Assembly (NCBI GenBank): GCA_003818605.1
Contig: RPQS01000023.1
Coordinates: 321-64,320 of the forward strand
Direction of reading: 5' to 3'
DNA from: Candidatus Zhuqueibacterota bacterium
GTDB lineage: Bacteria > Electryoneota > RPQS01
DNA: 64,000 bases
Position 1 is the stretch's first letter; each line of letters starts with the position of its first letter. Below are positions 25,675-52,395 of the stretch, piece by piece. A model generated the notes under the pieces. It was given only the letters and a program-made list of their open reading frames with translations, was not told the origin of the DNA and ran no database searches. The translations under genes were made by a program, and so were the position numbers.

Positions 25675-25688
25675 TGTATCATATTCCT

Positions 25689-26291
25689 TTAGACTGATTC
25701 GTTTTGTTCATCTTCAGGATGTGACAATTCCAAAAACATTGCATAAAAGGTCAAACGGAACTGCTTGCCAATCTCAGATCCACTTTCAATCTCTCTGATC
25801 AAATCATCCGCTGTGTACTTGTTCTCACCTAACTCAATTATGGGATTATCTCCGTCATCTTTTACGCGTTTACTCCACTCCCTGAGTGCTCGGAGTAATG
25901 CATCGGTCTCAGCTCTCTCTCCTAATTTGCTATTAATAGTCTCCAACAGAACATGCATTTCCTCCGGCTTCTCTATAAAACCATCAGCACCCAAGTTGCA
26001 CGCGCGTTTTGCATACTGATAATGTCCGAACGCTGTCATCACAATGACAACAGCGCGCTCGTCTCCTCTCGCAGTTTCGCTTTTTCGAAATTGTTCAAGA
26101 AGATCAAGACCCTCTGAATCGCTCGGCAGTCGTATGTCAAGCAATACGACATCATAGGTCTTTTGCTCAAACGCTCTCACTGCCTCTTCCTTAGTACTGC
26201 AACCTATAACATCAAACTTCTCTTCAACAAAATAGTTCGTAATGGCTTTAAGAAGACCTAGCTCATCCTCAATGACAAGGAGACTTCTCAT
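25689..26291 (-). CDS. response regulator: receiver domain plus an approximately 75-aa C-terminal domain of unknown type
   Basis: LLVIEDE, DVVLLDIRLP (phospho-acceptor Asp), VIVMTAFG and GADGFIEKP. I prefer the ATG at 26291, which has GGAGG 7 nt upstream and lies 1 nt after the HK stop. The track start at 26384 would overlap the HK by 92 nt. Confidence 0.85.
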   Translation of the reverse strand: MRSLLVIEDELGLLKAITNYFVEEKFDVIGCSTKEEAVRAFEQKTYDVVLLDIRLPSDSEGLDLLEQFRKSETARGDERAVVIVMTAFGHYQYAKRACNLGADGFIEKPEEMHVLLETINSKLGERAETDALLRALREWSKRVKDDGDNPIIELGENKYTADDLIREIESGSEIGKQFRLTFYAMFLELSHPEDEQNESV

Positions 26292-26292
26292 T

Positions 26293-29842: not shown

Positions 29843-31591
29843 CTAATCCTGAGTTCGAGACGGCGCTTCAAATTCGCTTTCGTTGAATCCAAGCTTTTTG
29901 GCTACCTTCTCGACGATCTTCGCGGCCCGGTCACGCATGAAACTTCTGTACATGTTGTAGTTCAGTTGCGATCGATCTATGCACGCTCTGGCAAGCTCGC
30001 CGTCGTTCACGTCCTCGAAGTATTCCTTGGGGTGCTGATTGCTCTTGTTCTGGTTCTTCCCCTTCGCAAGAATCCAGTAATTAGCAAAGTGATTGATCTC
30101 TTCCTCAGAGAATCGATCCATTTCTCTCAGCTTCGAGCGAGGAAAGATATGATCGATCTCGGGGGCGTTGGCCCAAAAATGTGTCTTGGCGCCCGACAAT
30201 TGCTGGACCAGCGATAGCGCGAGCGCTGGGTTGCGGTTAAGTAGATCATCATTAATTCCCGTTACTCGTTCCCAGTATCTTGAGTATTCTATCGCTTTCT
30301 CCAAGGGAAAGATGGGATCAGCCCGACTCGCTAGCGGCTTCAGAGCTTCATTTATGAATTTGTTAAGCCTACTGTCAGCGTAACGTGAGAACGGCGCACA
30401 GAAGCCAAATAGATAGAGCGCTTTCCTGAATGGTACAGTTCCATTGTTCGGCACAGTATGTCCGGTCGTGTTCGCCAGGTAGTAGACGAAGGGGACCAGA
30501 GTGTGATACCCCTTAAGGAGGCGACTGCTCACACACCAGCATTGTGTTTGAACAAAGTCGACAGATGACTGAATCGCTCTGCACACCCGATCGTAGTTCT
30601 TCTTGATCGCATCGATATTGTCTTTATGCCTTAGCTTGTCCACGTCAAATTTTGTACCCAGGCCCGCCACGGCAAACAAGCATCTCATCACAAAGTCGGT
30701 ATCAAGCTGAAATGAATTCCCTTCGTTGATTTTCTTGACGAACTCTGGAAGTGCAACGGCTGACTCGCGCCATGAAAGCTTCAGCATGCTGAAAATCAGA
30801 TCCGAGCGATTGAGCGGTGTTCCCTGTCGGTTGATACGAACGAACACCTCCAATACATCGGATTCACTCTTTCGCTCAGGTTTATCACTAGGGAGATTCT
30901 CATCTATGACAGACGCTTTTAGTATGTTCTCGTCTTTGCTAAGAGCATCGTCCATCATCTGAATGTTCGCTCGCAGTCGAAAGACGTCATCATCGCCAAG
31001 CGCTAGGTCGCTCTTCATCTTGCTGATCAGTCGCTCCTTGCTAATGGCGCCCAGTGTATAAATGTCCATAACTTTCAGAAACAATACCTTCCTATCATTC
31101 GCCTCCTCATCATCAGAGTCCGCATGAACATCGACTTGGGTCTGCACCCTTGCTTTCTCTCGCGATTCTGCATTCTTTTGCTGTGCCTCTGCGTCTGCCA
31201 GGAAACGGAAAGAGTACTTCACCTCACGAAAGTCCTTGCCAGGCTTGCCGCTCAAGACATCGAAGTAAAGGTGTCTCCCATTATGTGTACCGAACAGCCC
31301 GATGTACAAGGATTGGAGGCGTTGCTGGCCGTCAAGGACAATTCGCAGCCGCTTGTTCTCGGTATTGCTGTGGAAAACATACGAGGTGTCATCTCTGTAA
31401 TCCTGATCGAACGTGCGGTACTGTATGTCGTCATATGTCTCCCATTCGAGAATGATTCCGATCGGATATGAACGCATCACGGAATCAAGAAGCATTTGGA
31501 CTTTGTCTTCAGTCCATACAAAGTCGCGCTGAATAGCCGGGAGGACTACTTCGTTGTTCTTGATTTGGTTCAGAATCGAAAAGATGCTCAT
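29843..31591 (-). CDS. GmrSD-like type IV restriction enzyme (N-terminal DUF262 ParB-like NTPase, C-terminal DUF1524 HNH-like nuclease)
   Basis: VLPAIQRDFVWTEDKVQMLLDSVMRSYPIGIIL (DUF262 signature) and EIDHIFPRS...ANYWILAKGKNQNKSN (DUF1524 His-Me finger signature). Confidence 0.85.
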   Translation of the reverse strand: MSIFSILNQIKNNEVVLPAIQRDFVWTEDKVQMLLDSVMRSYPIGIILEWETYDDIQYRTFDQDYRDDTSYVFHSNTENKRLRIVLDGQQRLQSLYIGLFGTHNGRHLYFDVLSGKPGKDFREVKYSFRFLADAEAQQKNAESREKARVQTQVDVHADSDDEEANDRKVLFLKVMDIYTLGAISKERLISKMKSDLALGDDDVFRLRANIQMMDDALSKDENILKASVIDENLPSDKPERKSESDVLEVFVRINRQGTPLNRSDLIFSMLKLSWRESAVALPEFVKKINEGNSFQLDTDFVMRCLFAVAGLGTKFDVDKLRHKDNIDAIKKNYDRVCRAIQSSVDFVQTQCWCVSSRLLKGYHTLVPFVYYLANTTGHTVPNNGTVPFRKALYLFGFCAPFSRYADSRLNKFINEALKPLASRADPIFPLEKAIEYSRYWERVTGINDDLLNRNPALALSLVQQLSGAKTHFWANAPEIDHIFPRSKLREMDRFSEEEINHFANYWILAKGKNQNKSNQHPKEYFEDVNDGELARACIDRSQLNYNMYRSFMRDRAAKIVEKVAKKLGFNESEFEAPSRTQD

Positions 31592-36344: not shown

Positions 36345-36481
36345 TTCTTCTATGTCAGTCCTGTGAAACGGTATTATTTCTTTGTCTTGGATCGTCGGTC
36401 ATGAGCAAACACTTTGTCGAAGCGCATAAGCAAGTTTGGTTTCATACCGATCTCCGCTGAGCTTATCTATTGTACGATGTG

Positions 36482-37228
36482 TTACGCATTCGCACCGCCT
36501 ACATTAGCTTCAGTACCTCGCTGTGTGCGAGTCGGACCATGTGCGTACGTATTAATCAGTTTGCACATGCCTTTCCAGTCGTGTGCCTCACGCCTTGAAA
36601 ACTCTTCTTGAAAGCGTCCAATATCGTCATCGTGCTCTACCATCCAGTAATACATTAAGTGCCCTTGGTAACGCATCTTTCTCTCCCGCAATTCGGTAAG
36701 ACCCTGATTTAGGCGTGGAGCCAAAGGGGCCAATTCGTCCAGCACGATTCGACAATGTCCCGGCTTCAGTCTTGGTTCATTGACTTCGTTGTCGAGGTAG
36801 GCACTGACAAAAGCATTGCCGTATACCATATTTTTCTGCATTACCTGAAACCCTTGCCGTTCTTCGTAACGAAAATGACCAAATGCAATAGAAGTACTAA
36901 CCATGATGTCATGGCGGATCATTTTTCGGCTCAATGTGGCGACTATGTCCAACAATGGCTGTACCTCTTGGAGTGCGTTTTCGGCATGAGTGTTATTCAG
37001 CCGTAAGAACAAGATGCCACAGTCGGAGAAAAACAGACCATTCATCGCTGGCCCTCCCGCAAGCTCTCGCCGATACCGATCCGCATGGTCTCTTAGTACA
37101 TCATAGCCATATTGGTAAAAGTGATCTAGTGCATCCAAAGCTTTCTTCTTATCTTTCATCATCGCCTTGAAACCCGAGATGTCCAAGTAAGCAACCCATG
37201 TGTTGCCGTCGTAGGTTTCGATTTGCAT
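36482..37228 (-). CDS. 248-aa protein with a class III nucleotidyl-cyclase-like core (divergent); function unknown
   Basis: VAYLDISGFKAMM resembles the F-x-D-I-x-G-F-T metal-Asp strand. LFFSDCGILF resembles the second (G/S)D strand. IAFGHFRY...VYGNAFVSAYLDNE resembles the G-x-VN-x-A-x-R-x-E segment, but the Asn and Arg positions are substituted. GGAG lies 7 nt upstream of the ATG. Confidence 0.5.
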   Translation of the reverse strand: MQIETYDGNTWVAYLDISGFKAMMKDKKKALDALDHFYQYGYDVLRDHADRYRRELAGGPAMNGLFFSDCGILFLRLNNTHAENALQEVQPLLDIVATLSRKMIRHDIMVSTSIAFGHFRYEERQGFQVMQKNMVYGNAFVSAYLDNEVNEPRLKPGHCRIVLDELAPLAPRLNQGLTELRERKMRYQGHLMYYWMVEHDDDIGRFQEEFSRREAHDWKGMCKLINTYAHGPTRTQRGTEANVGGANA

Positions 37229-37370
37229 GTGAAGCTCCGATAGGCTGTCTTATCTCACGCGCGGTGTGCCGCCGCTGGATCGGCGGGAGGGGGATTGACG
37301 ATGGTTTGGTAGGAGTAGCCGGTGCGGATGTTCGCTTCTTCGGCAAGTCCTGAATTCGTGCGAAGCGGGT

Positions 37371-38186
37371 TCAATTAATACGCTCCACCGGCAGTAACTG
37401 CCCCTCTTCAATTAGTCTTCGGAAATGCATGTTGATTGACTTAGGCAAATCTCCACCCTTAATCATCACTCCAAACTCCATATTCAGAGACATAGCGTAT
37501 TCAGTCAAGTTGGCACTGGAAACAAGCGCAATGATATCATCAGCAACAGCGCACTTGGCGTGAAGAGAGCCGTGCCTGCCCACGCTGTCACGAGGTCGCC
37601 TGTCCAGTGGCCAAAAGAAGATTCTCGCTTTTTCAAGAAGCTCGCTACCAACTGCATCGGTCGCCTGGAAGTCCAGTTTACCTTCGCTTTCTTTGACCGA
37701 TTCCAATATCATAGTAACATCAACGCTGCGCTCTGTTGCCCGTAACAACGCCGACACGATTTGCGGAATCTTGTAGGCCGCAAAGGTCACAACAAGCACA
37801 GATGATTGGGCTCCCTCGATTAGGTCTAACAGTACCTGGTCCGTGCGGCGTAATCCATAATCAAGTCCCGGAGGACCCGTCCACACAAGCTCCATTACTT
37901 CGTCGGTAGTTAGCTTATGCCCTGTACTGAGAGCACCTCTGAGTGCCCAAGCCAATGACCTCGCTGAACAATTTTCTCTCAGGATGAATGCTGACTTAAG
38001 CAAATCGGCGACAGCCTGCCGCGCAGTTGTGGGGATAATTGTGCTTGCAAGAAGTGCGTACTCATTCTCAAGATGATCATCGTCCACTCCTTCAAGCTTA
38101 TCGCACAGCGCGACGACCATCGAAACAGGGAGCTGTTTGATAACAAGCCTCATGAGTCTGAAGAGGTCTTCAAGTTGTGTAGACAT
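37371..38186 (-). CDS. drmC: DISARM DrmC (phospholipase D-family nuclease)
   Basis: HKD motif GSLHAKCAVADDIIALVSSANLT. Sits directly after the DUF1998 gene. Confidence 0.85.
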   Translation of the reverse strand: MSTQLEDLFRLMRLVIKQLPVSMVVALCDKLEGVDDDHLENEYALLASTIIPTTARQAVADLLKSAFILRENCSARSLAWALRGALSTGHKLTTDEVMELVWTGPPGLDYGLRRTDQVLLDLIEGAQSSVLVVTFAAYKIPQIVSALLRATERSVDVTMILESVKESEGKLDFQATDAVGSELLEKARIFFWPLDRRPRDSVGRHGSLHAKCAVADDIIALVSSANLTEYAMSLNMEFGVMIKGGDLPKSINMHFRRLIEEGQLLPVERIN

Positions 38187-38193
38187 GCTTGGC

Positions 38194-40047
38194 TCAGTTG
38201 GATACGAAGAAAGCTACATCTTCAACGGCAAATGTCTTGACGAGGGTTGACCGATCAAGATATTTGTTTCCGTGCTCGCATGAGGTTTCCGGGGAAAACA
38301 AACATCCGTGACACGCCGCGCCGTGAAGAGTCGCATGTTCGTCATATGGCTTGTGCTCCGAGCATAAGGGATCAGAGGCACACAAACGTGCCCGTTCTAA
38401 AGCTTGGAGCACGTGATAGCTCAATTTCTCTGGATCGCCTAAACTAACCAATCCACCCAATGTGCCTTCACTATCCGGAGCCGCAGTGTACAGAAGAAGC
38501 CCAGCCATCGGGCCTCCTGGCAAGTCGACTTCTCGGGAGTAAATGCGCTCTCGTACGCTTGCCGCTGCGTACCCGCTGTCCGTTGCTAGCTGACGGAGCA
38601 CAGCATGTGCGAACGAGTGCAGTAACACGTAACGCAAACCTCGGAATCCCTGCTCGACCGGTGTCAGCTTATGCGCAAATCGCCAAGCCTTATGTGCTTC
38701 AAAGAATTCATGCTCCCTCTTAGCCACAGGTGTTCGTTTGCGCCAACTCTGAATAGCACTTTCCTCAAACTGTATGAAAAGTCCTTCCCCAAATACTTCT
38801 GTTGTTGGAATCCATACGGGAGGTTTGCGTGATAGTGGTGAATAGTCAGCGTTGCTGATTTCCATAAACTCGTCAAACTCGCCGGGCGACTCGACTCGTG
38901 TGAAGCCGATTAGGCTGCGAACTTCCCGCAGTCGTTCTACAAGTACAACTCTTGCAATGATCTCACGGAAATGCTTCGGAACGTCCACTGTTCTTAGCGA
39001 GAAATCTGAAGTATTGCTGATGACTTTCAATCCTGAAAGCACGGACCATTCCGGAAGCTTGAGATCCTTTCCATCCTCGCTAGTACCAACTGGCTTTTCC
39101 GATCTTCGTGCTTCGATTCGGACGAAGATTTCTTCGTCCTTGTAACCTGCAAAATCGGGCAAGTTACCTACTTTTCGAAATGCTCGAAGCACATCAATTG
39201 TCACTGCTTCCGCAAGGACTGACCAGTTCTTATCCACTAGCTGTGAAAGACGGTCCGTCGATTGAGGTATAGAAAGTGCGGATAGGGTAACAGGAAACCA
39301 ACTGTTTGAGGCACCAAGAAGTATCGTCTTGACCGATTCCTCGCACTCCTTATCATCAGTGCGTTTGATGTGGGGATGCCATCCTCTACATTTGGGAAGA
39401 TGCTTCGGCGCATCGGCACCAAATGCATCACCCATTCGGCGTTCTTCTTTGCAAGTCTCGCACCGCACGATAATGTCGGATGCTTCACCCGAAACACCAA
39501 ACTCGAACATCTTCAGAATGATCGGCCGACAGTTGCACGGTCCCTTATGGACATATTCTACCCACGGAAAGTCATCTAAGTGGCCATTACTGCACGCCAA
39601 TAAAAAGCGTACAGGGATCACCGGAGGTGGTCGGTCTGCTTTCTCGCAATGCGTATGTACAACCCGAGTTCTGTCGGGATAGAACGGCTGCTTCTGAATT
39701 TCAAACAGCCCCGAACTGATCGGTGCCAGAAGACTGCATTGTGGACAACGAGCCCAGCGTGGAAACGGGACTACAGGGACACCTGCCGTCACGGTGTTGT
39801 ATTGATTGAATCCCTTTTCATCGTCCTTTGAATCATAAGGTGGATGTCTAAGTGCTTCTATCTGAGATCCAAGTTGTTGCCGCACAGCCTGAAGAAGACG
39901 CTCTTCAGAGATTACTCTGGCGTACGAAATGTCCCAATCATCAAGTCCCATTACCAACACGGAAAAGTTCGGCAAATCAAGAAGGGAGCCAACTCCATAT
40001 GTGTACAGAAGCTGACTGGGACGAATATCACCAAGTTTCGTCTTCAT
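38194..40047 (-). CDS. drmB: DISARM DrmB (DUF1998 protein)
   Basis: C-terminal HGAACHGCLFSPETSCEHGNKYLDR zinc-ribbon signature of DUF1998. A 4-nt start/stop overlap with the upstream helicase indicates translational coupling. Confidence 0.85.
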   Translation of the reverse strand: MKTKLGDIRPSQLLYTYGVGSLLDLPNFSVLVMGLDDWDISYARVISEERLLQAVRQQLGSQIEALRHPPYDSKDDEKGFNQYNTVTAGVPVVPFPRWARCPQCSLLAPISSGLFEIQKQPFYPDRTRVVHTHCEKADRPPPVIPVRFLLACSNGHLDDFPWVEYVHKGPCNCRPIILKMFEFGVSGEASDIIVRCETCKEERRMGDAFGADAPKHLPKCRGWHPHIKRTDDKECEESVKTILLGASNSWFPVTLSALSIPQSTDRLSQLVDKNWSVLAEAVTIDVLRAFRKVGNLPDFAGYKDEEIFVRIEARRSEKPVGTSEDGKDLKLPEWSVLSGLKVISNTSDFSLRTVDVPKHFREIIARVVLVERLREVRSLIGFTRVESPGEFDEFMEISNADYSPLSRKPPVWIPTTEVFGEGLFIQFEESAIQSWRKRTPVAKREHEFFEAHKAWRFAHKLTPVEQGFRGLRYVLLHSFAHAVLRQLATDSGYAAASVRERIYSREVDLPGGPMAGLLLYTAAPDSEGTLGGLVSLGDPEKLSYHVLQALERARLCASDPLCSEHKPYDEHATLHGAACHGCLFSPETSCEHGNKYLDRSTLVKTFAVEDVAFFVSN

Positions 40048-43000
40048 GAATTCGCTCCCTGATTTGCTTGCGTGCCATTGCCAGATAGAGCAGTATCCAG
40101 GCCGTCCTCGTTTCCCAAAACAAGGTTAATGGAATGTTCAACATCACGCAGGGAGTTCAAGCATGTAAAGGTTCTCCAAGGACCGTCGCCGGCTTGGGAA
40201 AGCAGACCTTTACTGGGTTGAGATGACGCCGCTCGATAGGCCAAGAAGTAATGCCGTGCGTCTTGAATTTCTCGTAACCAGACATCTCTTCGTTCTGCGA
40301 GCATTGCCTTGACTTCTGCTGCCCGATCATTAGCGCCTTCAACATTCAATACCCGATCAGTGATAGCGGCGATAGCGGCATCCATCAATTCATCGTCTCT
40401 CTTCAGTTCACGAGCAGTAATATTGTGATTGAGCCGCTCAGAGGCTAAACGAATAAGAGAGACCATCAGCGCTGAAAGCCCTCGATCCAGAGCTCTGGGC
40501 GCAAATGGAGTGACTGACAGCACCTCAACATGTTGATAGAATGTCGAATGGTAATGCTCAAACTGCTCGAAATGCGATAAGTCGCGTGGTCGTGCCCAGT
40601 TATAGATTGTACATACGAGTCCAGGAAATTTTCTTCCAACGCGGCTTGTCGACTGAATATACTCAGCCGTCGTTTTAGGTTGTCCAAAGACCGCCATCAA
40701 GCCAAGCCGGTCCACGTCAACTCCGACCGAAATCATGTTGGTTGCGATCAGTACATCGAGTGGTAACGGGCGCGCAGATCTTTGCCCAAGTGCAGCCTTT
40801 CGCTCGGCCTCTGCTGCCTTGCTGAAGACGACATCCAAACGATCTAAGATCTTAGGTATATCAGCCGCACTCTTTCGCGATGTAAGTTCTTCGAGAATTG
40901 GTCGCCGTGCACGATTAGCCAAGCCACGCGAACTTGTGTCGCGCAATCGCGTGCTTACCTCGTCCTCGACCAGTCTTCGAGCACCTCCCAGTTCTCGAAT
41001 CGCATTAAAATAACCGACGAGTGTCATCCATGGATCAGCCAGCGTGTCGTACTTGTCGTAGAGAAGCTGTGCTGCAGCCAGAGATGCCACATACACGCGG
41101 ATCAAGGCAGCGGGATTGCTTTTACCTTGTGCGCAGATGCCAAGGTACTTGCGTCCTGGATATTCCGCACTTGGAGTCCGCTGTATTGCAAAGAAGTTAT
41201 CTGTAATGTCCGTCCCATGGGGTGGAAAGACTTCCAGCTTTCGTTGATAGAGCTTGAAGACTTGTTCTTGAGCGCGCCTGATGGTTGCCGTTGAAGCAAT
41301 GACTTTAGGCCTGACTTTCTTTCCGTCAATTTCCCATGATGCCAATGCATCAATAGCCGTTTCATAAAGCCCAACGAGCGATCCGAGCGGCCCATTGATC
41401 AGATGCAACTCGTCCTGAATGATTAGATCTGGTGGCCGCAGCAGAGGATGAGCTACCGACTGAACGGCTGGAAGTCCTCGATAGGCATTGTGTGAATCAG
41501 CGTCTTCAATTTCAGGAGAACGAAATCCATGTCGTGGACAGTATTTTGTGACCTGTCCGAACAACATTTGCACCTGTCCCTTCCACGGCATCTGGGCAAA
41601 CTTGTCAACGGTGGAGATGAGCAGGGCAGGCGGATGACGATAGATTTCCTCATCTACTACTAATGCTGGAATCCCTTCGTTTGGCGATTGTTTTGCCCCA
41701 AACGGACACTCACCAAGTTCGTCTCCGCAGTAGATGAACGTTCGCCACGGCGTCCCCGGTCCGACATTCACAGTAATGTGTCTGCCCGGATCAATTGTCC
41801 TCCCACACCATGGACAAGAGGTCAGTTGCGCCGGTGTCCCACTTTGGCCATAACCAGCGTCGCGCACCTGCTGAATGGCTTCTTGGGATTGTGCTGTTGT
41901 ATTGGGTGTAGATTTCATGCCCACCCACAGTCCAATGCGAAAAGGCTCCTTTCCCCACTTCTTCGGATCTTCTCGGCGAATCACCTCGCAAGCGCACATT
42001 AAAGTTGCAGCGCGTTGAAATTGTTGCAGGGTTAACAGCCGCAGCGTGTATCTCATCAATACGGCGACGCCAAACTCGCCTGGCCGTCCTGCAACAACTC
42101 CCTGAAGTCGTCTCATCGCTATCGTATAAGCGGTCAGTCCCAAGTATGCTTCGGTCTTACCACCACCTGTCGGGAACCATAGTAGATCCGCTGTAGCATC
42201 CGTGGGATGTGTGCGGTCTTCATGATGCAGATCCGTAACGCTCGGCAAGTTCAACAGGATGAATGCGAGCTGAAACGGATACCAACTTCGGTTTGCCGGT
42301 ATGTCAAGATCGGAAAGGTCTGGCTTTTGTCCTTTGCGTACTTCTTTGACGAAACGTGATCGCACGCGCTGTTGCCACATGGCTCGATTGGCAAACCGAA
42401 AGGCATCAGCTGCTTGAGGGTTTGATTCCAAGAGCGCGATACCTGCGCGGATTCTCGCCAATGTTCCTGTACATTTCTTAAGTGCCTCATTCGCGGCCAT
42501 TGCATGCTTCTGCAGGTCTTCTGCCGGATCATCAATCTTCTTGCGGTGTTGTTCAATCCACTCGGCATAAGCATCCGGCAGCGCCTTCAGGTAGCGTGGC
42601 AAATCCGCATCTGAGGCCTCCGACAGCAGTTTCATATCCAGAACCAGCGACGCCAGCGCCGGAATGTCTTTGGCCGTGGGTGGTGTGGTTTGTGGAATCT
42701 CCTGCGTGGGAATGGTGCGAGTTTCCAGTCTCACTGCCCGTTCATAGTCATCGGGTGATACGACCGCATGGACGGAGGTTCCGTGGCCGACGGCGAATTC
42801 AAGCCGCCGCCGATAGAGCATCGTCATGGCGTCTGTCTCCATCACCACCAGCGGATCAACTTGGTCGGAGGTGCGGCTATTCTTGACCCGCTTACGAAAT
42901 ACTGCCTGACCATCGGTTGATTCGACGATTATCTCCGGTTGAAGCAACCATGCTTCATCCTGCCTGACCTTTGGCTCCTGCTTTCCGTTCACCAGAAACA

Positions 43001-43577
43001 GTGTGACAATCCATTCATCCTGACTTTTTCTGATCCGCCCTTTGACCGATACATCCGGGTGTTCTTCATGCGGGTTCCACGGCACAAACTGACCCTCGCG
43101 CATCATCAGCTTGTCCGTCACGCCTTCAATCTGCTCACGTTTCCATACACGCAGCAAAGTTCCATCGGGTCTCTTAAGAGTTTCGCTGTCAGCTCTGGTG
43201 TACTGCCCCCAGCGCACGGTCAGCTTCAACGCTTTGGCTGCACCATCCACGGAAAAGGTCATGCCCATGGATGACGGCCGGAAGGTCTTGGTGGGTAGCG
43301 GAAACAGCTCGGCCTTACCATCCTCGGCGCTATCTGTGCCGGCTTGGCCCACTTCATCCAATTCTTCGGGGGCAATCTCCTGCTTGCGCGGGGCCAGCAT
43401 GCCCACCAGATAGCGTTCCCGCACACGGTCTTCGGCCACTTCCTCTTCTTCGCCACCTGCCGGGCCGAGCAGATCCTTCTTGATCAGCTCTTCTAACATA
43501 TCGCGTATTTCGGCTTGCGAAGGGGGCGGGGTTGCCACGGGTTCTGTCATAGCAGGAGTGGAATTGGATTCGGTCAT
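40044..43577 (-). CDS. drmA: DISARM DrmA (DEAD/DEAH-box superfamily 2 helicase)
   Basis: FPTGGGKTEAYLG (motif I), IIQDELHLI (motif II), IATNMISVGVDVDRL and QSTSRVGR (motif VI). Confidence 0.85.
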   Translation of the reverse strand: MTESNSTPAMTEPVATPPPSQAEIRDMLEELIKKDLLGPAGGEEEEVAEDRVRERYLVGMLAPRKQEIAPEELDEVGQAGTDSAEDGKAELFPLPTKTFRPSSMGMTFSVDGAAKALKLTVRWGQYTRADSETLKRPDGTLLRVWKREQIEGVTDKLMMREGQFVPWNPHEEHPDVSVKGRIRKSQDEWIVTLFLVNGKQEPKVRQDEAWLLQPEIIVESTDGQAVFRKRVKNSRTSDQVDPLVVMETDAMTMLYRRRLEFAVGHGTSVHAVVSPDDYERAVRLETRTIPTQEIPQTTPPTAKDIPALASLVLDMKLLSEASDADLPRYLKALPDAYAEWIEQHRKKIDDPAEDLQKHAMAANEALKKCTGTLARIRAGIALLESNPQAADAFRFANRAMWQQRVRSRFVKEVRKGQKPDLSDLDIPANRSWYPFQLAFILLNLPSVTDLHHEDRTHPTDATADLLWFPTGGGKTEAYLGLTAYTIAMRRLQGVVAGRPGEFGVAVLMRYTLRLLTLQQFQRAATLMCACEVIRREDPKKWGKEPFRIGLWVGMKSTPNTTAQSQEAIQQVRDAGYGQSGTPAQLTSCPWCGRTIDPGRHITVNVGPGTPWRTFIYCGDELGECPFGAKQSPNEGIPALVVDEEIYRHPPALLISTVDKFAQMPWKGQVQMLFGQVTKYCPRHGFRSPEIEDADSHNAYRGLPAVQSVAHPLLRPPDLIIQDELHLINGPLGSLVGLYETAIDALASWEIDGKKVRPKVIASTATIRRAQEQVFKLYQRKLEVFPPHGTDITDNFFAIQRTPSAEYPGRKYLGICAQGKSNPAALIRVYVASLAAAQLLYDKYDTLADPWMTLVGYFNAIRELGGARRLVEDEVSTRLRDTSSRGLANRARRPILEELTSRKSAADIPKILDRLDVVFSKAAEAERKAALGQRSARPLPLDVLIATNMISVGVDVDRLGLMAVFGQPKTTAEYIQSTSRVGRKFPGLVCTIYNWARPRDLSHFEQFEHYHSTFYQHVEVLSVTPFAPRALDRGLSALMVSLIRLASERLNHNITARELKRDDELMDAAIAAITDRVLNVEGANDRAAEVKAMLAERRDVWLREIQDARHYFLAYRAASSQPSKGLLSQAGDGPWRTFTCLNSLRDVEHSINLVLGNEDGLDTALSGNGTQANQGANS

Positions 43578-43594
43578 GGCGGATATTATTTCCG

Positions 43595-46500
43595 TTAGGT
43601 GTTTTCGTTATCGAGTATGTCAGGCTGATTGGCAACCTTGGCCTTGGCGGCTCTCTTGCTCGGCTTCTTCTTGCCCACATCCCACAGGCCCTGCGCGACC
43701 TCTTCAGCATGCCGTTCATGATTGAGCTTGAGCAACCGATCCAACACTTCGCGGCGAGCCTTCTCGCTGATTGTGAAGCGAACGCCTTGCTTCGTGGCAT
43801 GGAAACCATGTTCGAGCTGCAAGTCGCTCCAGCCGTAGGTTTGCGCTACGGCCTTGTCCATCTCAATTTGAAGCTCGCGAAGTTGTTGGATGTCCCCAGC
43901 CTTTTCGTCTCGATCATGAAAGCGATTATAAGTACCTGTTAGGCCCTCGCTCCGTTCTTTCATGATTGCCGTGCGGTAGTTGTGATACCGCGATCCGATG
44001 TCATCGATCTCTTTCGTTGACTTTGGGAGTGGGTAAGTCTCAAAACAATCAGATGGAGTGTACCGACCGCGAGTTTCAAGGCTGGACTGGTATGATACTA
44101 CCCATACTTGGTGAATCGAAGACTGAAGAAGTGCGAAGAAATTAAAGGTGTCAAAAGCGAATACACCGACGGCATGACTGAACACGATATCGGGACAATG
44201 AGCAACGACAATGAAGTGTTTACTTGTAAGTGCGGTGACAAACACCCGCGACATTCCGGAGACGGCCTCATAAAGGTTCGGTGCAGTTCGATGATAACGC
44301 CACCACTTAGCACTATTCTCTTGTGAGTCGACATCGCTGTGACTAACTGTTCCTGCCTCATATTTGGTTCGGACAATCCGAAGACAATCTGGAAAGTCCT
44401 CAGCAACTGGACCTGGATAGTCAGACGGGACAAATCCGTTTCGCAGCCAAGCAGTCCTCTGCCTTTCATCCGCTTCTGACCAGCTTCCTTCAAACGCTCG
44501 TGACAATGGCCAATCATGAAAATTGGCAATCCAACGGCTGGGTGACTGGTCGGGTCGTGATGTCAAATCCTCACCGTTTAAGAAACGATACACGACTTTG
44601 TGATTCTCCTCGCTCATAGTGAATAGCAAACGGGCTTCATCTTCGGAGAGTAGGAAGTGCTTGCCATGAACAGTCGATCCAATGAATGCTCGTCGTTCGT
44701 TAGCTTTGAGTCGTAATGGCATACCCAGTACTTTACCAGGAGTTCGCAGAAACGAAGTAATTCCAGAAACTCCTTTGTTCTCCAATACAAACTCTCCTGC
44801 CCACCGTCCTTTGCATATCCAGACGCAGGCAATCTCCAATGCTGCGGTGCCAGGCCACGGTCGGCTCGGGATGGCACGTATAATTGAACAATTACTCAAT
44901 ACGAGTTGATCCAGGCCGACTTCACGTGTTGTTACCTGCGAGATTGAATTACTTGCCAGCATTCCAATTATACCGTCTATCGCGACCAATAGGCTTGCAC
45001 GTAAATAGAAATAGGCGAACAAATCTGCGCTACCTCTTCGATCGTTTGCGATGTGACAGACCATATGCTCCCGGTAGTCAATGCCAAGTTGCCCGGTAAT
45101 ATGTTGTCCGCCAGAGAATGGCGGATTACTCAGAATGGTGTCAAATCCAATCCTGCCATTTGCAAACACTTCCGGGAATTCTACAGCCCAGTGGAACGTA
45201 CGTCTCGGCTGCAATTGACCTGCGGCAATTCTCGGCTCACTGGAGTTCAGTGCATCATAAACCAGCTCTTCGAGTTCCGCCAGCAGAAGCACTCGATCAT
45301 CATCCGATGTCTTCTCTGACAACACTCGTCCAGCCTTCTCTAACCAATCCTGTACCAACGAGTTATAATTGCCCTCTCGCTGCCCTGCGGTCTTGAAGGC
45401 CGCCGCAATCACCAAATCCGCTAACAAGCGAACCTGATCCGTAGCAATATCTGCTTCCCGAAGCAACCGTTCCTTTTCAGCTGTATCCGTTACACCTTCC
45501 GTGGCCATGTCTTCCAGCTTCTTGCGGAACTCGGCTGCCTTTTGTAAGGCCGCATGAATGGCTGTTGTATAGAACCCGGCAAGATGTTCGGCGTGCAGTT
45601 CCTTGCCACGATCCGGATTGATGTGGAAGTTCTCTACCTGCCGTGGATCGGTTACACCTAAGAGAGAGTCGCCACACTTTAGCGAGTGATCGAGAAACTC
45701 AAACGGCCTGCCCTTGGCCAATGTGATCAACCACAGCGAAAGCTTGGCCATTTCTACAGCCATGGGATTCTTGTCCACACCATACAAGCATCGATCGGCA
45801 ATAATTCGCCGGGCAATAGTCAGAGCTTCGTCTTCATTGTCCAAGGGAATGACCCGCTCTTCCGGTCTCCCTTCTGATGGATCGCCAAACGGCGTGACAA
45901 TAGGCCTTGTTCCGGCCTCCTTCTTCGCCTTCCCCCACGCTTCCAACAGAAGTTCGCTCAAGTAGCGACACGCCTGCACCAAGAACGCCCCCGACCCCAT
46001 GGCAAAGTCGCATATCTTGAGTGCCAACAGTTCCCGCGCCGACTTCAGATTCCACTCTTCACGCGGCTTGCCATCCGCCGGACCTTCATACACCAGCGGT
46101 TCCAAGGCATATTTCACAATTTCTTCGGTGAGCGTACGTGGCGTATAATGCGTACCGGTCGTGCGCCGATCGCTGCCCTGTGTTACGTATACGCTGCCCG
46201 GAACGATCACCGTTGGATAGCCCTGTGTGTCTTCACGAAGCAAAGCCGCATAAGGCCGTACGCGTTCCACAAGCGCTTGATCATTCTCACAAGCGACGAG
46301 CAATCGCTGGTCATCCAAGAGAGGAGGATTGGTCAGCGCGCGCTTGATGGCAGGCGCACTTCGTCCCGTCAGATCATGCAGATAATCTGCCAGATCATCT
46401 ATGCCGCGCTGGTGCAGCCTTTCCAGTTCTTCTAATGGAATCTCTTCTTCCTTGCCACGCGTTCCGGTCAATCCTAACACCGGACTTGCCGCCCGGACAG

Positions 46501-47824
46501 CAGTGTGATCGAGCAGTCCCTCATACACATGTCCGATTTGCTCAATGTCCAAAGCACGAAACGACAGGCGACGCGCTTCTTTCGGCCCACCGCCCGGCAT
46601 GGGCATCTGCAGGATTTGAAGCGCTTCCAGAAGATGAAGCACGGTGCGATTGTTGATTGGCAGCGGGACTGACTGCGTATCTTTCCACGAGGTTCCCTTG
46701 GGACGTCCTTCAAGAAACGGATAGCGATCCGGACTGAACAGCTTGCCACCGTAAGCAGGCAACCTCATGCGGTCGTGATCAATCCCCCCGTATACTGCCC
46801 GGAATGTGGCCAGCAGCCTGCACCACGCGTCAAGCCGCCTCTCTAACACTTCCTCGCCATGCTGATCCGCTTCTTCACGCAATTGTGCGCGGAGCGTGGA
46901 TACGGCGTAGTATAGATCGTAGAGCGGATCACCCAACAGCAATAAACCGCGCTCTTCCGCCGAAAACAGGAACACCAGCCGCATCATCACGGTCAATGCG
47001 GCATCATAAACCTCTTGCTCGGTGATGCCCTCAAGAAGTCCGCCTTTGCGATCCTTGTTTGAACGGTCAACGGCCTGCACCAACACTTCTACGGCTTTGC
47101 GAACCTGATTGCCGAGCTGTTCGGTAACTTCCTGCTGGTTTTGTGCACTCTCCGTGAACAGCGCCTCAAGCGTCTCGTTGTCAGCCACACCAAACAACCG
47201 TCGCTTGCAGAGCAAGCTGCGAAATGCGCGCAGGGTGATCTGCTCTTCAAACCAAAGTGCCGCGTACCAAGAGGTGAAGGTAGTCGTCTCACCCTTCAGT
47301 GCGTGAACAAGCATCCAGTGTTCGCCGTTAGTCACGATGCCAAGACGAACGCCCGTACCATACAGTAGCTCCATCATCCGCGTCGCCGGAGACGCTTTCC
47401 AGTCCTTACCGGGCACGATCTTGTCGAGCCCTTGCGAGACTGGATAGACTTGAATCAGGACACGCGGCTTCTGATCGGAGGGATTTGTCAGGACTATATC
47501 AGGACAGAGTGTTTCGCGTTGCTCAGAAACACGGACCTTCAGGTCATCGGGTATCTTATCCCGTGCCAGCAGAAGTTCGGATGGATATTCCAGGGTTTCC
47601 TGAAGTACATAATCAATCCATTCCTGATGGATCTTAGGATCTGCCTTAACGCCCCCTTGATTATCCTGCCACTCTTCGTAGGCATTTCGAAGGATCTTGT
47701 AGGGATCGGGTTCATGAGCATCAAGCCCTTGCGGGAACACACGCATGAGCACCGGCATAGACATGAACGGTCCGGAGACTTCTACCAACGAAAGCCAGTC
47801 TGCATGGTGTCTTGCAATGGACAT
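43595..47824 (-). CDS. drmMI: DISARM DrmMI (large N6-adenine DNA methyltransferase, Eco57I/type IIG-like)
   Basis: DFAMGSGAFL (SAM-binding motif I) and ILSNPPFSGG (NPPF catalytic motif IV); 1409 aa. Confidence 0.85.
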   Translation of the reverse strand: MSIARHHADWLSLVEVSGPFMSMPVLMRVFPQGLDAHEPDPYKILRNAYEEWQDNQGGVKADPKIHQEWIDYVLQETLEYPSELLLARDKIPDDLKVRVSEQRETLCPDIVLTNPSDQKPRVLIQVYPVSQGLDKIVPGKDWKASPATRMMELLYGTGVRLGIVTNGEHWMLVHALKGETTTFTSWYAALWFEEQITLRAFRSLLCKRRLFGVADNETLEALFTESAQNQQEVTEQLGNQVRKAVEVLVQAVDRSNKDRKGGLLEGITEQEVYDAALTVMMRLVFLFSAEERGLLLLGDPLYDLYYAVSTLRAQLREEADQHGEEVLERRLDAWCRLLATFRAVYGGIDHDRMRLPAYGGKLFSPDRYPFLEGRPKGTSWKDTQSVPLPINNRTVLHLLEALQILQMPMPGGGPKEARRLSFRALDIEQIGHVYEGLLDHTAVRAASPVLGLTGTRGKEEEIPLEELERLHQRGIDDLADYLHDLTGRSAPAIKRALTNPPLLDDQRLLVACENDQALVERVRPYAALLREDTQGYPTVIVPGSVYVTQGSDRRTTGTHYTPRTLTEEIVKYALEPLVYEGPADGKPREEWNLKSARELLALKICDFAMGSGAFLVQACRYLSELLLEAWGKAKKEAGTRPIVTPFGDPSEGRPEERVIPLDNEDEALTIARRIIADRCLYGVDKNPMAVEMAKLSLWLITLAKGRPFEFLDHSLKCGDSLLGVTDPRQVENFHINPDRGKELHAEHLAGFYTTAIHAALQKAAEFRKKLEDMATEGVTDTAEKERLLREADIATDQVRLLADLVIAAAFKTAGQREGNYNSLVQDWLEKAGRVLSEKTSDDDRVLLLAELEELVYDALNSSEPRIAAGQLQPRRTFHWAVEFPEVFANGRIGFDTILSNPPFSGGQHITGQLGIDYREHMVCHIANDRRGSADLFAYFYLRASLLVAIDGIIGMLASNSISQVTTREVGLDQLVLSNCSIIRAIPSRPWPGTAALEIACVWICKGRWAGEFVLENKGVSGITSFLRTPGKVLGMPLRLKANERRAFIGSTVHGKHFLLSEDEARLLFTMSEENHKVVYRFLNGEDLTSRPDQSPSRWIANFHDWPLSRAFEGSWSEADERQRTAWLRNGFVPSDYPGPVAEDFPDCLRIVRTKYEAGTVSHSDVDSQENSAKWWRYHRTAPNLYEAVSGMSRVFVTALTSKHFIVVAHCPDIVFSHAVGVFAFDTFNFFALLQSSIHQVWVVSYQSSLETRGRYTPSDCFETYPLPKSTKEIDDIGSRYHNYRTAIMKERSEGLTGTYNRFHDRDEKAGDIQQLRELQIEMDKAVAQTYGWSDLQLEHGFHATKQGVRFTISEKARREVLDRLLKLNHERHAEEVAQGLWDVGKKKPSKRAAKAKVANQPDILDNENT

Positions 47825-50800
47825 CAGCGATGTCCTCCGGCTGAACGGGCCAGTTTCTCTGGAACGTAAAATGTTACCGCAACCGGAAAGAGTCGTGATG
47901 TTGGGTTTGCGAATCTCCCTTGAATTGCTTTCACTTCCTGATCCAGTTCACTTGGGATAGTCTTCAAACGCTCCGCTAAACTGGTCCGATTGCGTTCAAG
48001 CTGTTCTCGTTCTGGATCGGTCCAAAGCGCAATCTGTTCAGGTTCAGGAGTCTTAAGCTCGTCTCGGATCGTCTGTGCCAGTTCTTCCATGACGGCAGTA
48101 ATATTTTTGATATCCTGATCCCGCCGCTCGTCAAGAAACTTCTGTAATCCCGCTGTTCGATCTGTGGTTCTTGCTTCTAACGATTGATACAGAGACTTCT
48201 CAAGATTTGGCCACAGCTTTCGCAGTTGCTCCTGCACTGGCGGTGGTGCATCTTCGGGAAGTCCTGCATCCAAAATCTGTTTCACCTGCGTTACGTTGAG
48301 CCTGCGGAAGCGACCTTCATCAATGATCCCACCGGCAGCAATCAACTCTTCATGCAAACGGTGGTTATCTCCGCCCAGTATGACTAATCGGCCATGGGCA
48401 ATGACGGCCGGAGTGTTCAAGATGTTGTTGGGCACAAGGCGTGCCGATACCCTGTTTAGCTGCTGCCGATGTTCGGTGGCCCAGACCTCGGCGCGAAGCA
48501 GGCGTAAAGACATCGCGACCAAGCGATGATTCAGATGTACGAGTACAATGTCGTCTCGACCTGCAATCAACGTTTGGTCAAAGGTAATCGGCCGAATACG
48601 ATGGGTATGTGGGTGTTCAAGTCCTTCAGAGCATCGTGCCCAGCTTCCTGCGAGTGCTGGCATACTGAACACAGGGCATTCTTTTCTTTGACCCGTTGGA
48701 TCGGGCCAGACTCCTGGCACAGACGCTTCGATCAGCGAAGGCTGTCCTGCCATCTGCAATGCCACATCCACAGCAGACTTAATGCTTTCGGGCGACAACT
48801 CAAGATCAAGCCGTGTGTTGTGAAGTTGTTCGCGCAGTTTGGCAATCTGATCACGCAGGTTTCGTTCTTGTTTTAGAAGTGCCTTCGGAATCTTGGCTTC
48901 TTCTTCTGCGTTGCGTGTATTCAGCTGAGTCCGTCGGCCCAGCATTGCTTCTTCAACCTGCGATGCGATGACCGGTCCCACCTTTCCAAGATCCTCGCGA
49001 ATGTTCTCCACTTTGATCACCGCTCGCATGAGAAACTCAAGATCGCCTTCTAACTGACCCACAGGCAGATCGCTGGATGGATTTTTCTCGTTATAGCCCT
49101 TCCCCACAAAGTGATGGATCAAGACTTCTGGCGATTTCTGTCCATGACGATCAAGCCTACCATTGCGTTGCTCCATGCGATTGGGATTCCATGGAATCTC
49201 GTAATGAATCAGGCGATGGCATTGGTTTTGAAGGTCAATACCTTCGGAAGCAGCGTCTGTTGCCAGTAGTATTCGTACAGCGGAATCAGCCGCCTTTGCT
49301 TGAAAAGCGTTCTTCACTTGCTCGCGGGTGCGACTGTCCATTCCCCCATAAATCATCTGTAGTCTGCCATCACGCGCAAACCCATGAGCTGCAAGCAAAC
49401 CGTGTAACCATTTTTGAGTTGTCCGATACTCCGTGAATATTAGAACACGTTCATCGTTCCATTGGCCGTTTGGTCTCAAAGTAGTATTCAACCAGTCTAC
49501 TAAGCTCTGCGCTTTGGTGTCAGGTTGCGACGCCGTATCGGCATAAACAGCCAGCGTCTTGAGCAGCCTCTGCTCCTCGCTTGATAGTGGCCGCAAGAGA
49601 TCTGACGCGCTTTCGACTGCTTCGACGGTCCCTTCTTCATATTTCTCGTCGTCCGAGAAGTCTTCTTGCAGTTCTTCTAACCGTCGACGCAGTACCCCAA
49701 TAGTTGGATATGCCAGTTGTCGCTGCGCCCGTCCTTTCTTAGCACGTAGAGACTCCATGTGGCACTTTAGTGTGGAAGCAAATGCTGCTGGCGATGAAAA
49801 CAGTCGTTTCTTCAAAAGCTTAAGCACGAATTCAGCGGCAAATCTCTCTGCATCGGTAGACGCCGCCTTCTGCCTCAGAAGTGTGTATTGATGAAGAGTC
49901 TGATGTATGTCTTTTTCCGCGCGCGTATAGTCAACTTCCAACGGTCTAATCTCACGTTTCGGAAATCGTGGAGTTCCATCCCATTTGGGAGGTAGCTCAC
50001 TTTTTAGGCGACGGACCATTACCGCGTGAAGTTGCTCTGGGCGTGGTCTTACTCCCCGAGCAAAGCGTTGATTGTCGAGTAATTCCAGCAAAGCGCCAAA
50101 GCTCTCATGGTAACCGTTGTGCGGAGTTGCTGTCAGAAAAAGCCGATGTTCAAAGTGAGATATTATTGTACGAATGGCTAGCGTACGCTGTGAATCAAGA
50201 GCATAATGTCCTGAACCAGAAGGCGCGATATTGTGAGCTTCATCAACAATTAGCAGATCGAAACGTCTTGGATACGTGGGCTCGCCAGCTGCTGGCAGCA
50301 CTTCACGATAGAGCCGCATAGGTCTATCTCGTTTCAAGTAGTCAATCGATGTAATAAGTCTTGGGAAATGCGTCCACGGATTGACTTGGATTCCTCGCGT
50401 GCGACGGAGTATTCGCATGAGTTCGCTGTCAACAATCCTGAATTCGAGACCGAACTTATCTCGCATTTGCTCTTGCCACTGAATCTGAAGTGAAGATGGG
50501 CAAACGATGAGCGCAGTATGGACTCTGTTGCGCAGGATCAACTCCTGCATCACGATCCCAGCTTCAATCGTCTTACCTAGCCCTACATCATCTGCGATGA
50601 GCAGGTTGACACGCGGCATACGAAGAGCTCGAACGACTGGATCCAACTGGTAGTCTTCAATCTCAATCCCGCTTCTGAACGGTGACTGCAGGGTTGATGC
50701 ATCGGCTGACGAGATTGTTCCCCACCGCACAGCATTCAGAAATGCATTCATGTAGTGCCCGTTATCAAATGCATCGGGCTTTGGCAAGGCCGACTTGGCA

Positions 50801-51018
50801 AACACGTGTGTGCCGGACTCCAGTTCCCAAACGACCTGCAGCTCTTCACCCAGAGCATCATCTTCGACCGATGCAAGAGTGACCAGATGCGTTGGTTGTA
50901 CAGCAGGAGAAAATGTTTGTCCATTCGTCGGAATGGCGTGGTTGATTTCCGAAACCACAAAACGTCTCTGTCGTACAACTACTAATTGACCTGGTTCTGG
51001 TAGAAGATTGGTTAACAT
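47824..51018 (-). CDS. drmD: DISARM DrmD (SNF2-family helicase)
   Basis: LLIADDVGLGKTIEAG, LLIVDEAHNI, LFLTATPHNG, ILLATDAASEGIDLQ and YEIPWNPNRMEQRNGRLDRHGQ. The stop overlaps the drmMI start. Confidence 0.9.
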   Translation of the reverse strand: MLTNLLPEPGQLVVVRQRRFVVSEINHAIPTNGQTFSPAVQPTHLVTLASVEDDALGEELQVVWELESGTHVFAKSALPKPDAFDNGHYMNAFLNAVRWGTISSADASTLQSPFRSGIEIEDYQLDPVVRALRMPRVNLLIADDVGLGKTIEAGIVMQELILRNRVHTALIVCPSSLQIQWQEQMRDKFGLEFRIVDSELMRILRRTRGIQVNPWTHFPRLITSIDYLKRDRPMRLYREVLPAAGEPTYPRRFDLLIVDEAHNIAPSGSGHYALDSQRTLAIRTIISHFEHRLFLTATPHNGYHESFGALLELLDNQRFARGVRPRPEQLHAVMVRRLKSELPPKWDGTPRFPKREIRPLEVDYTRAEKDIHQTLHQYTLLRQKAASTDAERFAAEFVLKLLKKRLFSSPAAFASTLKCHMESLRAKKGRAQRQLAYPTIGVLRRRLEELQEDFSDDEKYEEGTVEAVESASDLLRPLSSEEQRLLKTLAVYADTASQPDTKAQSLVDWLNTTLRPNGQWNDERVLIFTEYRTTQKWLHGLLAAHGFARDGRLQMIYGGMDSRTREQVKNAFQAKAADSAVRILLATDAASEGIDLQNQCHRLIHYEIPWNPNRMEQRNGRLDRHGQKSPEVLIHHFVGKGYNEKNPSSDLPVGQLEGDLEFLMRAVIKVENIREDLGKVGPVIASQVEEAMLGRRTQLNTRNAEEEAKIPKALLKQERNLRDQIAKLREQLHNTRLDLELSPESIKSAVDVALQMAGQPSLIEASVPGVWPDPTGQRKECPVFSMPALAGSWARCSEGLEHPHTHRIRPITFDQTLIAGRDDIVLVHLNHRLVAMSLRLLRAEVWATEHRQQLNRVSARLVPNNILNTPAVIAHGRLVILGGDNHRLHEELIAAGGIIDEGRFRRLNVTQVKQILDAGLPEDAPPPVQEQLRKLWPNLEKSLYQSLEARTTDRTAGLQKFLDERRDQDIKNITAVMEELAQTIRDELKTPEPEQIALWTDPEREQLERNRTSLAERLKTIPSELDQEVKAIQGRFANPTSRLFPVAVTFYVPEKLARSAGGHR

Positions 51019-52199: not shown

Positions 52200-52210
52200 C
52201 TTCCCACCGG

Positions 52211-52239
52211 ATCGGTGTGGAAATTCTGCACCGATTTTT
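52211..52239 (+). terminator. terminator after the acidic-protein gene
   Basis: ATCGGTG-(11-nt loop)-CACCGAT followed by TTTT. Confidence 0.55.
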
Positions 52240-52273
52240 AGCTATGGCTATCGCGCGTTTTTTCGGGTGGTAT

Positions 52274-52291: not shown

Positions 52292-52360
52292 GCGGATGAA
52301 CTCAGATCAAAAGATTTTCGATTTAATCGCAGTTTTAGCTATGAAAAGTGCCGTAGGCCC

Positions 52361-52389: not shown

Positions 52390-52395
52390 ATAGGT

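Follow-up and report, generated by a model that had tools for sequence, protein, structure and literature searches.

The sequence under study, referred to below as the window, is a stretch of 64,000 nucleotides (nt) from a Candidatus Zhuqueibacterota bacterium (assembly GCA_003818605.1, contig RPQS01000023.1, positions 321 to 64,320 of the forward strand). On its minus strand, a gene encoding a protein of 248 amino acids (aa) lies downstream of a complete five-gene class 1 DISARM set (37371..51018) and upstream of the gene for Avs2, an AVAST type 2 STAND NTPase of 1478 aa; coordinates are collected in Table 1. The protein is predicted to adopt the fold of class III nucleotidyl cyclases (cyclase homology domain, CHD). 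Taken as a whole, the evidence makes it reasonably probable that this is an autonomous accessory gene, related to biological conflict, and not one member of a two-gene system formed with either Avs2 or DISARM.

A preliminary description of the locus, made from the sequence alone, had placed the gene between DISARM and a giant STAND NTPase, and had called attention to three cyclase-like peptides, to a ribosome-binding site of its own and to flanking gaps of 142 and 137 nt devoid of a convincing terminator. These elements hold. The flanks are class 1 DISARM, with drmC adjoining, and Avs2; the peptides VAYLDISGFKAMM, LFFSDCGILF and VYGNAFVSAYLDNE translate from the open reading frame (ORF) exactly as quoted; the gene has the same orientation as drmC and the 1478-aa gene, all three being on the minus strand; and the gap lengths are exact. 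A GGAG stands 6 nt before the ATG and would be used as ribosome-binding site; such Shine-Dalgarno-like sites are often unused in Bacteroidota, a group that the host seems to resemble, to judge from the type IX secretion sorting domains of large proteins encoded nearby. In both gaps, terminator-like sites, inverted repeats and Rfam matches were sought and none was found, and the same is true of promoter-like sites in the 142-nt gap; the only terminator-like site of the scanned region falls inside the 248-aa ORF. The 137-nt gap carries two weak sigma-70-like hexamer pairs (36402-36373 and 36358-36330) just ahead of Avs2, the scanned region as a whole having four such sites against 1.7+/-1.3 expected, a difference that is not significant.

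Fold and family of the 248-aa protein

The assignment to the class III cyclase fold rests mainly on structure prediction. The AlphaFold model obtained from a 110-sequence alignment (predicted local distance difference test, pLDDT, 90.2; predicted template modelling score, pTM, 0.87) consists of strand 1, helices 1-2, strands 2-3, helix 3, a long strand 4-5 hairpin, helix 4 and strands 6-8, followed by two additional C-terminal helices, and in it the beta-alpha-beta-beta-alpha-beta core and the dimerisation arm of the CHD fold can be recognised. It replaced a model computed from 5 sequences, which was unusable (pLDDT 47.6). When the 110-sequence model was compared with the PDB by Foldseek, a check that the preliminary description had proposed, all of the top 50 matches were class III adenylyl or guanylyl cyclases (E 2.6e-8 to 2.7e-6, probability 1.00), with target-normalised template modelling scores of 0.51-0.65 for single-domain cyclase chains and lower values for long multi-domain chains. 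Among the fold matches are CyaC (1WC4), Cya2 (2W01), CyaB (3R5G), mammalian adenylyl cyclase (1AZS and 1CJK chains) and soluble guanylyl cyclase; the viral structure matches at E<=1e-3 include guanylate-cyclase-domain proteins. The cyclase resemblance that had been proposed is therefore upheld, and it exceeds chance.

At the level of sequence, the evidence for cyclase kinship would by itself be marginal. The family profile reaches a cyclase among PDB sequences only with CyaB (3R5G) at E=0.88; its best matches there, HAD hydrolases aligned over 23 residues, were rejected as spurious. The Pfam model Guanylate_cyc (PF00211) matches 2 of 110 members, with a best E of 3e-3, below its gathering threshold. 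A local hhalign comparison with six annotated cyclase domains, taken from plasmids, spans 137 columns (E=1.1e-3, probability 20%) and was used for residue mapping only; the global mode gave a meaningless alignment with the same domains. These weak links appear consistent with a cyclase fold. In the CyaB alignment, VAFiDisGFk of the profile stands opposite VFFSDIRGFT and fvSDCgilf opposite FVGDCVMVF, which agrees with the earlier suggestion that the first two motifs hold the metal-binding Asp residues; the third, which had been compared with the transition-state segment, is the equivalent of cyclase helix 4.

The protein is a member of a sizeable, uncharacterised, stand-alone family that is widespread in bacteria and archaea. 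Searches of Pfam, NCBIfam and PADLOC gave no significant match to it (none to PF00211 at E<=1), phmmer found no match in the PDB, and PHROGs returned only a marginal one, to phrog_23933 of unknown function (E=1e-3). While a word-indexed search recovered just four relatives at about 40% identity, an exhaustive profile search yielded 431 clusters (50% identity) at E<=1e-3, of which 155 reach E<=1e-30; among the matches listed, the relatives are almost all single-domain proteins of 200-260 aa. A second profile search added at least 120 members of 206-258 aa and one of 336 aa, and no precomputed Pfam domain is found in the further members that it listed. NCBI names the members hypothetical; UniProt gives some of them the automatic name 'Guanylate cyclase domain-containing protein'. 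No paper describing the family was found in the literature.

A genome survey based on one peptide pattern and tblastn, with one genome per species, provided 64 loci. They span Bacteroidota, delta-proteobacterial and Desulfobacterota-type metagenome-assembled genomes, Elusimicrobiota, Omnitrophota, Zixibacteria, Bacillota, Methanosarcina, Methanothrix, Bathyarchaeia and Hodarchaeota, among others. Searched by tblastn with the window protein and the family consensus, 50,697 phage and 72,556 plasmid records gave no member.

Some members depart from the common architecture. Two of them, P0362 (336 aa) and P0053 (304 aa), represent a small subfamily that is lengthened at the C-terminus by about 100 aa, in which CPICTG and CEGC motifs occur. 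This tail may be a zinc ribbon; no other domain addition was observed among the members. The chromosome of Methanosarcina hadiensis has two copies (L039 and L051), one of them split into fragments of 82 and 127 aa that look like a pseudogene. Since fragmented copies also occur in three other loci (L066, L067 and L069), frequent decay of family members is suggested.

Active site and possible activity

Residue conservation was counted over 261 full-length members of the family. The first metal-binding position, D16, is Asp in 251 of the 252 members without a gap at that column (a further 9 have a gap), and the second, D69, in 260 of 261; both align with the Asp residues of CyaB and of the six annotated cyclases. 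The adjoining S68 is conserved at >=95%. The positions equivalent to the transition-state Asn and Arg of cyclases are F140 and Y144 according to hhalign, or V141 and L145 in a by-eye register anchored on G137. Across the family, columns 140, 141, 144 and 145 are occupied by Y/F, V/L/I, F/Y/V and L/F/I respectively, with no Asn at any of the four and one Arg only, at position 141; the replacement of the usual Asn and Arg, already noticed in the window protein, is hence a property of the whole family. Nor is there a base-specifying Lys or Glu at the position four residues ahead of the second Asp, the Lys of the DKFxGD motif being set by hhalign opposite L65, in a hydrophobic or variable column.

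In their place the family keeps other, near-invariant residues: K21 (Lys in 235 of 252 members), K132 (255/261), C159 (246/261), R160 (252/261) and W195 (256/257). K132, C159 and R160 could take part in substrate or phosphate binding. In addition, C70, which stands beside the catalytic Asp in SDCG, is Cys in 171 of 261 members and Ser in 76 of the remainder; a redox or metal role for C70 together with C159 is conceivable. To judge from these alignments, the metal site is under strong selection and the remaining pocket differs from that of class III cyclases.

The comparison with structurally known class III cyclase domains (CyaC from Spirulina, CyaB from P. aeruginosa and Cya2 from Synechocystis) summarises both sides of the relationship. 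Fold, topology and Asp positions are the same, and so is the G-x-x-x-x-x-A framework of helix 4 followed by a PGxhxh strand. In contrast, the 248-aa protein is devoid of the transition-state Asn and Arg, of the Lys before the second Asp and of the phosphate-binding Arg; its family has instead the conserved K21, K132, C159, R160 and W195; and it presents two extra C-terminal helices, no regulatory domains and no PF00211 match. It is not filed as a canonical adenylyl or guanylyl cyclase, because it departs from that class at three residue-level points and lies outside its Pfam family. The protein is probably an Mg/Mn-dependent nucleotidyl-transferase or cyclase, with a pocket and a product unlike those of cAMP, cGMP and cCMP cyclases, and probably acts as a homodimer through the retained strand 4-5 arm.

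The two halves of heterodimeric cyclases offer a close parallel at the level of residues. The C1 domain of mammalian adenylyl cyclase has the two Asp and not the Asn/Arg/Lys set, and the 248-aa protein likewise keeps the former without the latter. Unlike the C1 halves, no C2-type partner gene is found nearby in any family locus, and the family-specific basic residues suggest a self-sufficient homodimer.

This parallel leads to the alternative that best withstands the evidence, namely that the protein is a pseudo-enzyme whose cyclase fold serves to bind metal or nucleotide, as a sensor or scaffold, without turnover, like the non-catalytic halves just mentioned. The family-wide absence of the transition-state Asn and Arg and of the base-specifying Lys speaks for it, and non-enzymatic roles are reported for cyclase-like folds (PMC13060281). 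Against it, both Asp are conserved at about 99%, together with K21, K132 and R160, among sequences that share only 25-40% identity with the window protein, a conservation typical of an active site under selection. Moreover, palm enzymes of the GGDEF and Cas10 types do without the class III Asn/Arg pair and are active nonetheless. A pseudo-enzyme seems to us unlikely, while deserving serious consideration.

Genomic neighbourhoods and the question of partners

For each locus, ORFs were called, the family member was located, and the neighbours within four genes were clustered by BLAST at two stringencies. The following gene (+1) shares the strand of the family member in 45 of 55 loci, at a median gap of 65 nt, and the preceding one (-1) in 42 of 56, at 124 nt, figures that are only slightly more operon-like than the usual background. 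The +1 proteins are mutually unrelated: HATPase_c_3, N6_N4 and N6 methylases, CHAT, FRG, RelA_SpoT, Mrr_cat, DEAD helicases and DUF58/VWA proteins are all represented. Even those whose genes are tightly coupled to the family member (overlap or <=20 nt) are diverse, comprising a pPIWI-associated nuclease, a DNA methylase, a GDP-mannose dehydratase, an Lcl_C protein, an RHS protein and an IS91 transposase. Within positions +/-1 and +/-2, 94 neighbours match 332 PADLOC models, among which are mad2, PsyrT, type I and II methylases, the helicases BrxH, DruE and DpdJ, and SngC.

The only recurrent set of neighbours was observed in seven Flavobacteriia-type loci, where a 451-aa ParB-like protein (LEGNRRVTALK motif) is encoded at +1, with gaps of -16 to +50 nt to the family member, followed in six of the seven by a 319-aa Dam-like methylase (DPPY motif) at +2. 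In this clade the three genes may form a unit. Iterated searches with hidden Markov models (HMMs) built from the ParB-like and Dam-like proteins recruited no other neighbours.

Six metagenomic loci (L085-L090) were inspected with precomputed Pfam annotation. In L086 (6471-10237) hsdS and hsdM flank the family member within a type I restriction-modification (R-M) operon that also includes a Schlafen/AlbA_2 gene, a layout that recalls the restriction-linked prrC gene. In L087 it shares an island with HigBA-like genes and with those for a NucS_C and a SIR2-Piwi protein; in L088 it is 4 kb from a type I R-M system, in L090 beside a relaxase/MobC element with R-M genes, and in L089 among genes of unknown function. 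In the flanks retrieved for 72 loci, type I R-M systems are present in 5 and R-M-type methylases in 12, roughly tenfold above our approximate expectation for random placement, a figure obtained without a matched control.

These data describe a gene that is patchy, horizontally moving and self-contained, that favours defence-rich or mobile variable regions and that has no fixed partner. The picture that emerges is as follows. By its predicted fold and its metal site the 248-aa protein is a solitary, single-domain member of the CHD-fold superfamily, belonging to a large uncharacterised family; it would carry out metal-dependent nucleotidyl transfer with an altered substrate pocket, leading to a product unlike cAMP, cGMP or cCMP; its gene moves horizontally and lands in variable regions rich in R-M, other defence and mobile-element genes; and its role, in which we place moderate confidence, would be related to conflict, the protein either working by itself as a single-gene module or generating a signal that acts in trans.

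Several points weigh against this proposal of an autonomous, conflict-related gene. Without the Asn, Arg and Lys, the protein may be no enzyme at all. The co-orientation of the genes and the terminator-free gaps make co-transcription with the neighbours, drmC included, possible. The window copy is an outlier, with <=42% identity to any relative, and because of this a lineage-specific link to its neighbours lies beyond the reach of comparison. The survey of 64 loci samples the family incompletely, and the association with defence is qualitative. Finally, in at least one locus, L085, the family member is found among sulfur-metabolism genes, with no defence context.

The proposal may also be taken a step further, the family being then a self-contained anti-phage or conflict module, a minimal class III-fold enzyme whose rewired pocket would make a non-canonical nucleotide product or consume nucleoside triphosphates, alone or via a distant receptor, possibly as a guard of methylation-based systems. 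PrrC, lodged in a type I R-M locus, provides the analogy for such guarding, given that members are found between hsdS and hsdM, beside ParB-like and Dam-like genes, and beside DISARM. So precise a function is rather doubtful.

It might be argued, on the other hand, that the protein has nothing to do with phage defence and serves ordinary physiological signalling, as a cyclase or nucleotidyl-transferase whose gene is passively carried in variable regions. The sulfur-metabolism context of L085, the GDP-mannose dehydratase encoded at one +1 position and the absence of the family from the phage and plasmid records searched are in keeping with that idea. It is more difficult to reconcile with a patchy distribution over bacteria and archaea in non-syntenic neighbourhoods, with the repeated location inside or beside R-M, prokaryotic Argonaute, toxin-antitoxin and mobile-element genes, and with a protein that has no sensory or regulatory input domain; we consider it improbable.

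CBASS, Pycsar, Thoeris, type III CRISPR and Panoptes were each found through a small cyclase next to an effector, and a likeness to two of them deserves comment. Pycsar combines a cyclase with a protein that acts as receptor for cyclic pyrimidines (PMC11224242), and its PycC is likewise a small class III-fold cyclase encoded in defence islands. Nevertheless, the PADLOC models of PycC give no match to the 248-aa protein even at E<=1, and the catalytic residues differ. Its effector, a transmembrane or TIR protein that binds cyclic nucleotide monophosphates, is not adjacent here, as the preliminary description had remarked, the neighbours being DrmC and Avs2, nor does any such adjacent effector recur in the 64 loci. 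Identity with Pycsar was rejected on the grounds of the profiles and of the effector. An earlier screen of defence islands for cyclases that make cyclic nucleotide monophosphates recovered 967 PycC proteins (PMC13069673), and would miss the present family because it has no Pfam cyclase matches.

The second likeness is to mCpol of Panoptes, a minimal Cas10-like cyclase that is constitutively active, guards against depletion of its signal by phages and is always paired with a 2TM-beta effector (PMC12657230). Also a minimal single-domain nucleotide cyclase in a defence context, it is a precedent for a small, domain-only cyclase. It is Cas10/GGDEF-like, whereas the fold matches of the 248-aa protein are class III cyclases and no fixed partner accompanies it; identity with Panoptes was rejected for these two reasons.

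The preliminary description had raised the possibility that the gene serves the STAND or DISARM genes as a signalling partner, or forms a new two-gene system with the former, and had asked for conserved adjacency. This was looked for from both sides and the suggestion did not survive. In the 64 family loci, no Avs2 homologue was found by phmmer with the window Avs2 or by an HMM of 60 Avs2 homologues at E<0.1; phmmer found no homologue of DrmA, DrmB, DrmC or DrmMI either, and DrmD retrieved two generic SNF2 helicases only. From the Avs2 side (four related genes on contigs longer than 70 kb, seven loci), no family member lies within 5 kb of the four closest related Avs2 genes examined. The adjacency to Avs2 and DISARM is known from a single contig, and it is best explained as island packing because a conserved STAND or DISARM neighbourhood is absent. 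That the gene stands between two complete and independent systems, the juxtaposition being an accident of island assembly, is strongly supported.

A two-gene system in which the cyclase-like protein would make or remove a nucleotide signal gating Avs2 (an Mrr-NACHT protein), or in which Avs2 would activate the cyclase, is accordingly very improbable. It could appeal to the co-oriented neighbours, separated by the terminator-free 137 nt, and to two loci with nucleases next to the family member: a stand-alone Mrr_cat nuclease at +1 in L007, and a -1 gene with a weak Hjc-like nuclease match in L001. These have to be set against the two-sided search just described and against the two promoter-like sites ahead of Avs2. 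Avs2 itself scores above its NCBIfam equivalog threshold over its length, no additional nucleotide-sensor domain having been detected, and the literature describes it as a direct sensor of the phage large terminase that oligomerises on target recognition (PMC13601566, PMC11564622). The word 'cyclase' does not occur in a systematic STAND survey. The remark that the combination of a cyclase-like protein with a nuclease-NACHT protein had not been described is in agreement with the literature searched, where no paper on a cyclase-Avs pairing was found.

Least probable of all is a sixth, accessory DISARM gene, such as a regulator or signal generator co-transcribed after drmC: the gene is on the same strand, 142 nt after drmC across a gap without terminator-like or promoter-like site, and its relatives are often beside DNA methylase-based systems, but the five class 1 DISARM genes are complete without it, no PADLOC model matches it, and the search of the 64 loci for Drm proteins gave only the two generic helicases mentioned above.

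What is new in the autonomous gene proposed here is that a predicted cyclase fold with its two-metal site intact goes together with a replaced pocket and the lack of an adjacent effector, in a family that recurs in defence-rich or mobile regions of bacteria and archaea. Pfam-based screens of defence islands for cyclases would overlook the family. If active, it would extend nucleotide-based immunity by a new product or by a single-gene logic that is itself new; if inactive, it would be a clean example of a cyclase-fold pseudo-enzyme. In either case it is a reasonable candidate for experimental screening. In an annotation of the window, DISARM and Avs2 are each to be treated as complete and independent, and the 248-aa gene is to be entered apart from them, with its function left unassigned.

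The surrounding island

The features discussed above are listed in Table 1, together with the loci of the recurrent ParB-like and Dam-like genes.

Table 1. Positions of the 248-aa gene, its motifs and neighbouring genes in the window, and of the ParB-like and Dam-like loci elsewhere
Feature	Position	Strand	Evidence or remarks
248-aa ORF, stand-alone, predicted divergent class III cyclase (CHD) fold	36482..37228	minus	ATG start; ORF list, homologues, AlphaFold, Foldseek
GGAG, Shine-Dalgarno-like site	37235..37238	minus	ahead of the ATG of the 248-aa gene; direct sequence reading
Strand 1 to helix 1 motif, VAYLDISGFKAMM	37157..37195	minus	first metal-binding Asp, D16 (codon 37181-37183), and family-specific K21
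Strand 2-3 hairpin motif, LFFSDCGILF	37007..37036	minus	second metal-binding Asp, D69 (codon 37022-37024)
Helix 4 segment, VYGNAFVSAYLDNE	36785..36826	minus	equivalent of the class III G-x-x-V-N-x-A-x-R transition-state helix, without Asn and Arg
Family-specific basic and Cys residues	36749..36835	minus	K132 (36833-36835); PGxCR motif with C159 and R160 (R160 codon 36749-36751)
Gap, drmC to 248-aa gene (142 nt)	37229..37370	minus	
Gap, 248-aa gene to Avs2 (137 nt)	36345..36481	minus	
Avs2 (AVAST type 2 STAND NTPase), 1478 aa	31908..36344	minus	NCBIfam, PADLOC
DrmC	37371-38186	minus	PADLOC, NCBIfam
DrmB	38194-40047	minus	PADLOC, NCBIfam
DrmA	40044-43577	minus	PADLOC, NCBIfam
DrmMI	43595-47824	minus	PADLOC, NCBIfam
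DrmD	47824-51018	minus	PADLOC, NCBIfam
ParB-like and Dam-like genes in L021, L023, L024, L033, L048, L064	about 8001-10950 each		
ParB-like gene only, in L028	about 1800-3085		

The identification of Avs2 relies on the NCBIfam equivalog NF041813 (1241.6 bits, cut-off 1000) and on PADLOC (E=0). The window copy has diverged far: in a set of 5.8 billion clustered proteins, the best relative shares only 38-44% identity with it. Directly after it, at 29843-31591 (minus strand), a 582-aa GmrSD-like type IV restriction protein is encoded, matching GmrSD_N/GmrSD_C in Pfam and HEC-05 in PADLOC, because of which one strand of the island carries no fewer than three known systems in succession. The G+C content is flat across it (about 0.48-0.52).

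At one edge of the island (25009-29115, minus strand) are found a PAS/PAS histidine kinase of 940 aa, a receiver-domain protein of 231 aa with a weak SduA-like PADLOC match, and a 221-aa ORF for which PADLOC and Pfam gave no match. Beyond DrmD, 51645-56396 contains ORFs of 158 and 291 aa without Pfam match and an 851-aa DUF5906 protein, a group that may mark the other border with replication genes of a mobile element. ORFs of 303 and 291 aa near 52.7-59.6 kb gave no sequence relatives in the PDB, and a search of the window for tRNA genes found none. At 13237-16596 (plus strand) and 18521-23608 (minus strand), the window encodes very large secreted proteins with type IX secretion sorting tails (Por_Secre_tail).

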